Shown here piece after piece: positions 19,260 through 21,087 of a stretch of 22,311 bases of DNA. Source of the DNA: a virus (lineage: Duplodnaviria > Heunggongvirae > Uroviricota > Caudoviricetes); the IMG/VR virus record IMGVR_UViG_2711768068_000023, positions 1 to 22,311 of that record; one strand, 5' to 3'. Made by a program: the position numbers and the translations under genes. Each line of letters opens with the position of its first letter. Position 1 is the stretch's first letter. A model generated the notes under the pieces. That model made no database searches. It was not told the DNA's origin and saw nothing but the letters and a program-made list of their open reading frames with translations.

Positions 19260-19302
19260 GATGACACATCCTATAGCACATAGCCAAACATAGCAATCAG
19301 AC

Positions 19303-19327
19303 TGTCCGCTTTGTGTTGAAGCGGACA
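19303..19327 (+). terminator. Hairpin (possible early-left operon terminator) downstream of the xis-like gene
   Basis: 8-bp stem TGTCCGCT/AGCGGACA with 9-nt loop; the downstream tract is only moderately T-rich. Confidence 0.3.
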
Positions 19328-19489
19328 TTGCCGCAGCGACTTGTCTTAGCCATAAATAACCAAAACGATGCGCTGTTCATATAAAGTTCTTTTAAACTTC
19401 AAATCAGTAATTTTTGTCTAAATCTTTTCAAACTCATAAAAACCAGTAAGATAAGAAATCACCTTTACCTGTTTTTATGAGAGGCATAA

Positions 19490-20716
19490 ATGATTGATAA
19501 TGAAGTTAAAATTTTTGCAAAAGAAAAAGAAAAAATGCTGTGCAACAAACTTTCTTTTTACAGGGAGCATGCTCAATCGAGTGAAGATACAAGAAAAAGA
19601 AACGAATTTGAACGAGACTATGCGCGTATTCTTTATTCCTCTTCGTTCCGCCGGTTACAGGGGAAAATGCAGCTCTTTGAAGTCGATCCTCAAAAATTTA
19701 ACCGTAATAGACTGACTCATAGCCTAGAAGTTGCCCAGATAGCCCGAAGCATCGCATCCGAACTAGAACTTGAACATCCTGTTGTAGCAGAACTGGCTGC
19801 ACTTGCTCACGATATTGGCAACCCTCCGTTTGGTCATTCCGGTGAAAAAAAGCTAAACGATATTGCTAATGATTTCGGCGGCTACGAAGGCAATGCACAG
19901 GCACTTAGAATACTCAGAAGTCTCGAGATAAAGCATCCAAATTGCCCCGGTCTCAACCTTACCCACCGTGCCATTCTCTCCGTCGTTAAATATCCTTATA
20001 AAAAGGAAAACGGCAGAAAAAAATATCTTTATAATGATGACTATAAATACTACACAGAATTGGTAAATAGATATGAATTAGATTTGCAGACTGGCGAGAA
20101 GACCATTGATGCACAGATAATGGATCTGTCAGACGAAATTGCATATGCCGCGCATGACCTTGAAGATGCACTAAGCCGTAGCATGGTCAGTATTGAAGAT
20201 ATTTTTTATGAGTTTGGGATATCCAAGTACAAAGACTCAATTGATTTATTAAATAAAATCATTGAAAAATCTAAATATACAGCTTCGAGAGCATCAAGAC
20301 TCAATTCATCTGAAGAGTTCGCCATAATATTCAGAAAGGAATTGACATCCAATATTGTTAATGCGCTTGTTAATGATATTACTGTTATTCAAAGTGAAAA
20401 TGGATTCAAGCAACTTGGATTTAGCACTACAAAAAATCTGTCTGCAGGCCTTAAAGATATCGTATTTAAAGTCATCATGCGAAAAAGAGATATTAAAAGT
20501 TATGAGCACAAAGGAAACATTATCATCGAAGATTTATTTAATTTTTATAATTATAGAGATAACATAGAATTCATATCCCCTCAACTGTATAGAACGCTCC
20601 CAAATAAAATAGATCCTATTTATCAAGAACTTAAAAAACGTGCAATTGTCGACTACATCTCTGGAATGATGGATACATTTGCCATCCGCGAATGGGAAAC
20701 GCATCACAAAAAATAA
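19490..20716 (+). CDS. dGTPase-family dNTP triphosphohydrolase (HD domain, Dgt-like; 408 aa), AT-rich moron
   Basis: Motifs RLTHSLEVAQIAR, LAHDIGNPPFGH and MDLSDEIAYAAHDLEDAL correspond to the His/HD/Asp metal-binding blocks of E. coli Dgt-type dGTPases. Codon usage is strongly AT-biased relative to flanks. GAGAGG RBS. Confidence 0.8.
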   Translation: MIDNEVKIFAKEKEKMLCNKLSFYREHAQSSEDTRKRNEFERDYARILYSSSFRRLQGKMQLFEVDPQKFNRNRLTHSLEVAQIARSIASELELEHPVVAELAALAHDIGNPPFGHSGEKKLNDIANDFGGYEGNAQALRILRSLEIKHPNCPGLNLTHRAILSVVKYPYKKENGRKKYLYNDDYKYYTELVNRYELDLQTGEKTIDAQIMDLSDEIAYAAHDLEDALSRSMVSIEDIFYEFGISKYKDSIDLLNKIIEKSKYTASRASRLNSSEEFAIIFRKELTSNIVNALVNDITVIQSENGFKQLGFSTTKNLSAGLKDIVFKVIMRKRDIKSYEHKGNIIIEDLFNFYNYRDNIEFISPQLYRTLPNKIDPIYQELKKRAIVDYISGMMDTFAIREWETHHKK

Positions 20717-21087
20717 CCAAACTGGCGCACATCAACAACAGATTCAGTGCCACTCTTCCCATGGGACAGAACAGTGATTCTGTCCATTATCACCCGATTA
20801 TACAGATAAGCCACATCTAGTAGTTCTGAGCTAGCATTTTCCACATTGATTACGCTTCCGTGCACATCGTTATTTTTAACCAAAAAGAAAGGACATATGC
20901 AAAAATAATATCAAGTAACGGAGTGTGTTAAATCGTAACCAATCATCTTTACTTTACATTTCGTAACTTAAACCGTACGTTTTCTAAACATTAAATATAC
21001 ACTTTGCGCTGTAAGTTGTATCTCTCCGTTAAGCTCACTGCTCAACGCCAATAGTCATATTTTATTGCGTTCTGGCTGCGCAAATTG

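Follow-up and report, generated by a model that had tools for sequence, protein, structure and literature searches.

The sequence analyzed here, referred to as the window, comprises the 22,311 nucleotides (nt) of IMG/VR virus record IMGVR_UViG_2711768068_000023 (Caudoviricetes). Between an excisionase-like gene (xis) and an integrase gene (int), it carries a gene for a 408-amino acid (aa) protein, which RefSeq lists as WP_000566662.1 under the name [quoted passage not shown] The locus is laid out as follows, with coordinates counted from the first nucleotide of the window.

19044-19259, + strand: excisionase-like helix-turn-helix (HTH) gene, 71 aa, the last conserved backbone gene to the left of the slot
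19316-21055: variable cargo slot of 1.74 kb, where homology breaks relative to relatives that have no dGTPase
19479-19484, + strand: Shine-Dalgarno sequence GAGAGG, 5 nt upstream of the dGTPase open reading frame (ORF)
19490-20716, + strand: predicted Vdg-like HD-domain deoxyguanosine triphosphate (dGTP) triphosphohydrolase (dGTPase), 408 aa, ATG start
21088-22311, − strand: tyrosine integrase, 407 aa, with Pfam domains Phage_integrase, Arm-DNA-bind_3 and Phage_int_M, forming the right border of the slot

The dGTPase gene and the integrase gene are convergent. An earlier interpretation made from the DNA letters alone, termed here the sequence-only reading, had placed the 408-aa ORF by itself between the excisionase-like gene and the integrase, and it is indeed the sole ORF with database support in that interval.

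The family to which the 408-aa protein belongs was examined by profile searches, motif comparison and structure prediction. Pfam detects an HD domain (8.7e-14; score 52.2 versus a cut-off of 22) and an HD_assoc domain (4.8e-13; 49.9 versus 22.2), the NCBIfam model TIGR01353 dGTP_triPase scores 313 bits against a cut-off of 152.35, and the PADLOC dGTPase model matches at 1e-104. The motif residues are H77 (within RLTHS), H107-D108 (the HD pair), D215, Y219 and D223, and the catalytic dyad is H116/E119; the complete HD triphosphohydrolase motif set that had been reported is present at the coordinates given. H77, H107, D108, D215, H116 and E119 all align to counterparts in both Escherichia coli Dgt and Vdg. 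The AlphaFold2 (AF2) model has a pLDDT of 89 and a pTM of 0.91. When it is compared with the PDB by Foldseek, the best 50 matches listed are all dGTPases or deoxynucleoside triphosphate (dNTP) hydrolases with TM values of 0.65-0.78, the top match being the anti-phage Sp-dGTPase 9p8w in a PDB library older than the release of 9vwa. Judged by family score, metal ligands, dyad and modeled fold, the intact ORF is predicted to encode an HD-domain dNTP/dGTP triphosphohydrolase. The ratio of nonsynonymous to synonymous substitution (dN/dS) relative to a Klebsiella copy is 0.165, and the enzyme is therefore under purifying selection. A weak Rfam match to ctRNA_p42d in the 5′ part of the coding sequence (19517-19555, − strand; 21.6 bits versus a gathering threshold of 50, E = 0.17) was judged to be a chance match.

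By sequence comparison, the closest characterized relative of the 408-aa protein is Vdg (DGT1B_VIBCH; PDB 9vwa, 9vwc and 9vwg) of Vibrio cholerae O1. Vdg hydrolyzes dGTP in vitro and assembles as a square octamer; an allosteric site in its dimer interface binds deoxyadenosine monophosphate (dAMP), and activity requires this site. It guards E. coli against T2, T4, T5, T6, T7 and phiX174, and this protection is abolished by H114A and by mutations in the pocket or the octamer interface (Shi et al., Nat Commun 2026, PMC13519002). A phmmer comparison with 9vwa/9vwc gives E = 2.5e-113 over query residues 1-405 and Vdg residues 1-390, with 54% identity, which answers the call made in the sequence-only reading for an alignment with characterized defensive dGTPases. 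Both are single-gene systems of similar size (408 versus 402 aa), and the HD pair and the H/E dyad are identical. All nine residues of the Vdg dGTP pocket (Q59, L60, N133, K165, Y166, K176, Y214, D218 and E330) are retained, as are, in the sequence alignment, seven of the eight that form the dAMP site (R31, R35, R40, R44, Y47, Q81, K146 and V286). Among the 14 dimer-to-octamer contacts, 10 are identical and three more are conservative; the tail that bears Y400 and K402 is missing. Across 34 members of the clade (49-86% identity), the catalytic residues, seven of the nine dGTP-pocket residues, seven dAMP-site residues and seven interface residues are invariant. On the features compared, the 408-aa protein qualifies by sequence as a member of a Vdg-like branch of TIGR01353, and it probably assembles into an oligomer of the Vdg type whose dimer interface holds an allosteric dAMP site. 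Unlike Vdg, it is carried by a lambdoid prophage in E. coli. The "Dgt-type" label of the sequence-only reading is replaced by this Vdg-like assignment, given 24% identity to E. coli Dgt and a score of 163.9 versus 405 for the Dgt model NF003429.

The base composition of the gene sets it apart from its surroundings. Its coding sequence has a G+C content (GC) of 36.5% (32.5% at third codon positions), compared with 49.5% for window positions 1-19259 and 45.4% for int, and the lowest-GC stretch of 1227 nt in the whole 22 kb begins at 19351; the marked AT-richness that had been pointed out is thus real. The insertion was delimited by comparison with six relatives, all without a dGTPase (2H10, PhiR63_1, JNE25-003, RM13514, 103605 and AZ187). 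Five of the six are prophages at the prfC/yjjG site, and 2H10 is a free phage genome. Their int genes are 95-97% identical at the nucleotide level and their xis-side backbones 84-93% identical, and their homology to the window stops between 19270 and 19315 and returns between 21056 and 21098. Within the slot, the dGTPase belongs to a smaller unit that occurs elsewhere together with its flanks. This unit and its putative control elements, along with a hairpin at the left slot edge, are the following.

19378-20991, + strand: imported dGTPase cassette of 1.6 kb (GC 36.0%), with 112 nt ahead of the gene and a tail of 275 nt behind it
19425-19452, + strand: candidate sigma-70 promoter, TTTTCA, 16-nt spacer, TAAGAT, matching 8/12 consensus positions as read from the sequence
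19433-19481, + strand: inverted repeat with 17-nt arms and a 15-nt loop; it covers the candidate −10 hexamer and stops within the Shine-Dalgarno sequence
20764-20785, + strand: 3′ hairpin with an 8-bp stem and a 6-nt loop, 48 nt after the stop codon (−13.2 kcal/mol, z = −2.4)
19303-19327, + strand: hairpin after xis at the left slot edge, with perfect 9-nt arms in a repeat scan and a 10-bp stem in the fold

The proposal that the gene was acquired horizontally is borne out by the 1.74-kb insert in a conserved backbone and by the 1.6-kb cassette, which is 83% identical to Klebsiella plasmid DNA (82.7% over 1652 aligned positions; L008). The cassette is 82.6% identical at the nucleotide level to an Enterobacter hormaechei chromosome (L039) and, over 19378-20818, 84% identical to a Providencia heimbachae copy (L040). 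In the Klebsiella (L008:2594-3415, − strand), Enterobacter (L039) and conjugative-element (L034:2801-3622, − strand) copies, the dGTPase adjoins a divergent gene for a 273-aa protein that has no family match and is 82% identical between the Klebsiella plasmid and the conjugative element. A 2.6-kb unit containing both genes is 99.6% identical between the Enterobacter chromosome and the Klebsiella plasmid, and the two may form a two-gene module elsewhere. Window positions 19378-19380 (CAT) correspond to the start codon of the 273-aa gene, of which about six remnant codons are left (19360-19380, − strand). Homology in the window begins exactly at this start codon; therefore, the prophage captured only the dGTPase and the intergenic region.

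The upstream region retains a plausible promoter. The final 66 nt before the ATG are kept in four contexts and include TTTTCA-16 nt-TAAGAT, and both hexamers lie in blocks kept in the Klebsiella, Providencia and conjugative-element copies. Going by its sequence, the 19425-19452 element could plausibly serve as the dGTPase's own promoter. The suggestion that the flanks hold a promoter thus stands in part: a conserved 8/12 candidate exists, and none reaches the scan threshold of 9/12. A promoter-like site on the − strand (20931-20902) was set aside because it is not conserved in the Klebsiella copy.

Hairpins had also been predicted in the flanks. They exist, and they are modestly unusual (z from −1.3 to −3.4). 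Only the 19433-19481 hairpin clearly outperforms shuffled sequence: its arms are 88% complementary, it folds at −13.4 kcal/mol (z = −3.4), and two of 200 shuffles fold as well. Other copies of the cassette keep this repeat only in part. It could act as an operator or as a 5′ structure limited to read-through transcripts; speculatively, in transcripts that enter from xis upon induction, it would base-pair with the start of the Shine-Dalgarno sequence. The stem and loop at 20764-20785 (ACAGAACAGTGATTCTGTCC) are identical in the Klebsiella copy and carry no T-run, the Providencia homology (to 20818) spans this position, and the hairpin probably serves the cassette by ending transcripts or stabilizing them. 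The hairpin at 19303-19327 (−15 to −16.7 kcal/mol, z = −1.3) is unexceptional by shuffling and, having no T-run, was not called by the terminator scan; it may be where transcripts of the early-left operon end or are processed. Downstream of the dGTPase gene, the 371-nt spacer is ~71-76% identical to Klebsiella (blastn and global alignment), near the level of synonymous sites (pS = 0.335). A small gene or noncoding RNA in this spacer was considered and gained no support, as the boundaries of its short ORFs (59 aa on the − strand, 42 aa on the + strand) are not maintained in the Klebsiella copy.

These features bear on the possibility that the cassette, while intact, is an unexpressed passenger here, silenced for example by H-NS, and makes no present contribution. 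Such a state would fit a gene of 36% GC in a 49% background, with no consensus-grade promoter found and its usual divergent 273-aa neighbor lost on capture. It fits poorly with an ORF that has stayed intact in a locus 99.5-100% identical in 42 genomes of different serotypes, with the dN/dS of 0.165 and with the conservation of the promoter-like blocks, and we regard it as improbable.

In place of the dGTPase, the slots of the relatives hold four other types of cargo, all encoded on the int strand (coordinates are those of the respective comparison loci).

L002:3522-4241, − strand: cargo of 239 aa, phrog_8440, in the slot of a related phage or prophage
L003:3423-4556 and 2967-3332, and L004:1949-2977, − strand: phrog_7779 cargo of 342-377 aa, with or without a 121-aa ORF, in related slots
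L005:1835-2317 and 2359-2811, − strand: cargo pair of 160 + 150 aa in a related slot
L006:1875-2690, − strand: cargo of 271 aa in a related slot

None of the four has a Pfam or NCBIfam match or a significant PADLOC match; they are candidate defense or moron genes. Because five cargo types, the dGTPase included, lie between flanks that are 84-97% identical, the idea that this position is a cargo hotspot is confirmed. The flanks have matches in 718 E. coli genomes. Each related phage (L002-L007) also has a hairpin after xis, at a position equivalent to window 19285-19330; the stem sequence varies, being GGCACAGAG...CTCTGTGCC in most relatives and TGTCCGCTT...AAGCGGACA in the window. These hairpins may mark a boundary of recombination or a conserved element at which transcripts end or are processed.

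The locus is found in 42 of 5426 complete E. coli genomes (0.8%), including O157:H7 strain NE122, many O111:H8 strains and others, and among the matches listed the E. coli copies always occupy this prophage slot. Two records of Stx2c-converting phages are the only phages of the GenBank collection with a close copy; other phage matches are at most 32% identical. A Klebsiella plasmid protein is 85% identical, and the cassette occurs in 79 PLSDB records of Klebsiella plasmids. A scan of species-representative genomes with an exact peptide pattern returned just two loci and is therefore too insensitive to describe the distribution. Genomic contexts were read for nine relatives of 51-85% identity.

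Klebsiella plasmid region: IS110, with Thoeris ThsA/ThsB ~6 kb away
E. coli island: CdiAB, H-NS, YagK/YfjJ and AlpA
Klebsiella CP4-57-like island: adjoins a 2092-aa NACHT protein
Proteus prophage: directly after int, at the prophage end
Morganella lambdoid prophage, nin region (L031:8001-9227): 65% identical, antiparallel to the phage genes
Prophage-like element with cI/Cro/DnaT
Trb/TraX conjugative element: beside a resolvase
Small Cronobacter island
Shewanella, 51% identical: variable chromosomal spot

Eight of the nine are on mobile elements or defense-type islands, with Shewanella as the ninth, and the Vdg-like clade is accessory, not housekeeping. From these contexts it follows that members of the clade entered temperate phages on three or more occasions and at different positions; the Morganella copy is an independent capture at another prophage position. 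The Morganella dGTPase adjoins a gene for a 710-aa protein (L031:9348-11480) that has no Pfam or PADLOC match.

The same data address a function in host fitness, in which the enzyme would regulate dNTP pools for mutation avoidance or homeostasis and have no anti-phage role. The protein does fall within the general TIGR01353 subfamily, its 51%-identical Shewanella relative adjoins core genes, and homologues less than 45% identical to Sp-dGTPase lack high co-localization with defense genes (10.1101/2021.04.26.441389). However, E. coli already has dgt, to whose product the 408-aa protein is 24% identical, and the gene is present in only 0.8% of complete E. coli genomes, among the matches listed always in this slot. 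In addition, its relatives reside predominantly (8/9) on mobile elements or defense-type islands, and the nearest characterized relative, Vdg, provides defense. Housekeeping placement without a link to defense islands was therefore not what these comparisons revealed, and a purely homeostatic role is a long shot.

The element that carries the gene can be described through its counterpart in NE122, a strain of E. coli O157:H7, in which it is a lambdoid prophage identical to the window over the compared stretch 19000-21200. In NE122, the genes for a cI-like repressor, yfdP, yfdQ, yfdR, ead/Ea22-DUF551, xis and the dGTPase all read in the direction of lambda pL; the opposite direction is taken by cro, Q, terminase and the genes for replication and lysis. 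The 71-aa ORF that precedes the slot matches HTH_17 and HTH_23 weakly, with scores under the Pfam cut-offs, and its homologue in phage 2H10 carries an excisionase annotation. Immediately before it, a continuous 394-aa ORF (17860-19044, + strand) combines an Ead/Ea22-like domain with a C-terminal DUF551; the RefSeq annotation of NE122 splits the equivalent region into a truncated ead/Ea22 pseudogene and a separate small DUF551 gene. One further gene of the early-left operon shared with the dGTPase is relevant.

16357-16893, + strand: YfdR, HD-family 5′-deoxynucleotidase

The prophage thus encodes two HD-family nucleotide hydrolases, YfdR and the predicted dGTPase. YfdR was considered as a dedicated partner that removes the dAMP activator and was set aside, since it is a backbone gene present in phages that have no dGTPase. 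It could, speculatively, still lower dAMP, the activator of Vdg, during induction.

The integration site of the prophage falls in the first ~65 nt (5′ end) of prfC, beside yjjG (L001:23313-23545), and homology to the host gene resumes ~230 nt past the int start codon, outside the window. Because the window ends precisely with the int start codon, the attachment (att) site and the arm-type sites are not in it. The sequence-only reading had suggested att-proximal arm sites in the spacer 20717-21087. This suggestion does not hold, because the att junction lies on the far side of int. The spacer is mostly the tail of the imported cassette, with 20717-20991 shared with Klebsiella plasmids.

The orientation of the gene raises the question of whether it serves the phage's own lytic cycle, expressed mainly by read-through from the early-left operon after induction. 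It could then reshape dNTP pools, slow replication of the host chromosome or exclude co-infecting phages. The dGTPase gene shares its orientation with cI, yfdPQR, ead and xis, the post-xis hairpin has no T-run and was not called as a terminator, and the HD-family 5′-deoxynucleotidase YfdR shares the operon. However, depletion of dGTP during the phage's own replication would be self-defeating, and phages with an identical backbone manage without the gene. The cassette also comes with a conserved upstream region of its own and would operate outside phages as well, on plasmids and in islands, and the Morganella homologue runs against the surrounding phage genes, a typical moron arrangement. A lytic-cycle function is unlikely on this evidence.

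Our analysis favors, with a probability of roughly 65%, a single-gene defense by dGTP depletion, in which a Vdg-like dGTPase that arrived as an imported cassette is provided by the prophage to its lysogen. This was also the central proposal of the sequence-only reading, and it is supported by all of the computational checks applied. Its grounds are the integrity of the gene, family placement, residue conservation, purifying selection, the borders of the cassette, the variability of the slot and the contexts of the relatives. From these we infer the enzymatic activity, the oligomeric state, expression in the lysogen, the defense itself and the logic by which the prophage would spare itself.

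The mechanism would operate as follows. The self-contained AT-rich cassette arrived with its own upstream region and 3′ hairpin, and the lysogen would transcribe the dGTPase from the gene's own promoter. The 408-aa enzyme would split dGTP into deoxyguanosine and triphosphate at an H..HD..D metal site with the aid of the H116/E119 dyad. Upon infection by another phage, dGTP would fall and the intruder's DNA synthesis would stall, protecting the lysogen and the prophage along with it. Induction of the prophage itself may be spared because activity would be gated. One candidate cue is the dAMP released as virulent phages degrade host DNA; lambdoid phages do not degrade host DNA, and dAMP should rise when virulent phages do. 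A second candidate is the shut-off of host transcription. T7 escapes Sp-dGTPase via mutations in 5.7 and 0.7, modifiers of host RNA polymerase (10.1101/2021.04.26.441389), which points to shut-off as the cue, and lambdoid phages cause no such shut-off. Both gating ideas would extend to this locus by analogy.

Several observations weigh against a defensive role in the lysogen. AT-rich imported DNA is often silenced by H-NS in E. coli, and consensus scans of the flanking DNA on the + strand detected no promoter (threshold 9/12; the candidate scores 8/12) and no intrinsic terminator. The dGTPase runs parallel to the early-left (pL-type) operon, so induction could raise, rather than lower, its expression. 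The defense data for Vdg come from vector expression in E. coli, not native levels. At the allosteric site, the residue aligned with Vdg R31 is D33, in a part of the alignment that contains gaps and has R35 and K36 close by; R31 is said to keep dADP and dATP out of the pocket (PMC13519002). The last ~9-12 residues of Vdg, which include interface residues Y400 and K402, are missing, and none of the four contact residues of the Vdg 16-mer/filament is kept. The score for the anti-phage dGTPase model NF041026 is 275, below the cut-off of 400, and identity to Sp-dGTPase is just 26%. Homologues less than 45% identical to Sp-dGTPase lie beside known defense genes in 10% of cases, versus 53% for close ones (10.1101/2021.04.26.441389).

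A broader and more doubtful proposal is that the xis-int slot is a dedicated anti-phage hotspot, with the four other cargos as undescribed defense genes, and that the dAMP site tells intruders from the phage's own replication. Degradation of host DNA would raise dAMP and turn the enzyme on, and lambdoid induction would not. The hotspot part of this tentative reading takes in Stx2c-converting phages among the prfC-integrating lambdoid phages. If dAMP discrimination is real, it would explain how a prophage can carry a dNTP-depleting weapon without self-harm.

Much of the background to the dGTPase itself is established. The gene is flagged by PADLOC and PGAP, the clade was characterized in 2026, the enzyme class, its defense role and the presence of defense genes on prophages in general are known, and the dGTPase finding leaves current concepts unchanged. 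No paper on this prophage gene came up in literature searches pairing dGTPase with prophage, Stx or anti-phage terms, and the xis-int slot of prfC-integrating lambdoid phages was not met as a described hotspot in searches that were not designed for hotspots. Were the gene active in lysogens, some lambdoid prophages of pathogenic E. coli (O157:H7, O111:H8), Shiga-toxin-associated ones among them, would confer nucleotide-depletion immunity on their hosts, with a bearing on phage therapy, on biocontrol of Shiga toxin-producing E. coli and on competition among the many prophages of these strains. The locus offers a natural system in which to ask how a temperate phage carries a dNTP-depleting enzyme without blocking its own replication, a question that is not unique to it, and the slot yields four uncharacterized cargo genes worth screening for defense.

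Beyond Vdg, the 408-aa protein can be set against three kinds of known systems. It shares its fold and predicted chemistry with the Sp-dGTPase and Ec-G177 dGTPase (Tal et al. 2022, 10.1101/2021.04.26.441389; NF041026; PDB 9p8w), and it has in common with Sp-dGTPase the concept of defense by dGTP depletion and the PADLOC dGTPase model. Foldseek's structure-based alignment puts the identity to Sp-dGTPase at 26%, and a value of 46% is reached only over the conserved N-terminal 129 residues; the 408-aa protein is ~40 residues shorter, and a different oligomer is expected. Membership in the Sp-dGTPase clade was rejected on the NF041026 score of 275.4 bits versus a cut-off of 400 and on identity below 45%.

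E. coli Dgt (b0160; PDB 4x9e) is likewise an HD-domain dGTPase, and its metal ligands and HDIGNPPFGH motif are identical in the 408-aa protein. However, the 24% identity is accompanied by large gaps, and Dgt has 505 aa, with big insertions, versus 408. Dgt is a hexamer with an effector site for single-stranded DNA, and its gene lies at the core chromosomal mtn-dgt-degP locus, whereas the 408-aa gene occupies a prophage slot. Membership among housekeeping Dgt enzymes was rejected on the NF003429 (PRK04926) score, the low identity and the different locus.

Clover, which consists of the dGTPase CloA and the nucleotidyltransferase CloB, also relies on a dGTPase effector set by allosteric nucleotides, and it demonstrates that such dGTPases can be held inactive in the absence of a phage cue (Yamaguchi et al. 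2025, PMC12265719). CloA is 24-26% identical to the 408-aa protein, for which the expected ligand is dAMP, not dTTP. A Clover-type system was rejected here, since the dGTPase gene has no partner: it is the only ORF with family or database support in the slot (19316-21055).

With respect to carriage, dGTPase systems have already been noted on P1-like phage-plasmids (10.1101/2025.09.12.675607). The one homologue in a ~95-kb E. coli phage genome of the collection is that of vB_EcoM-673R5, which, at ~30% identity to the 408-aa protein, belongs to a different clade. The closest parallels in arrangement are the defense morons and cargo hotspots of temperate phages such as P2 and P4, which likewise place an AT-rich, self-contained gene in a variable slot beside the integration module.

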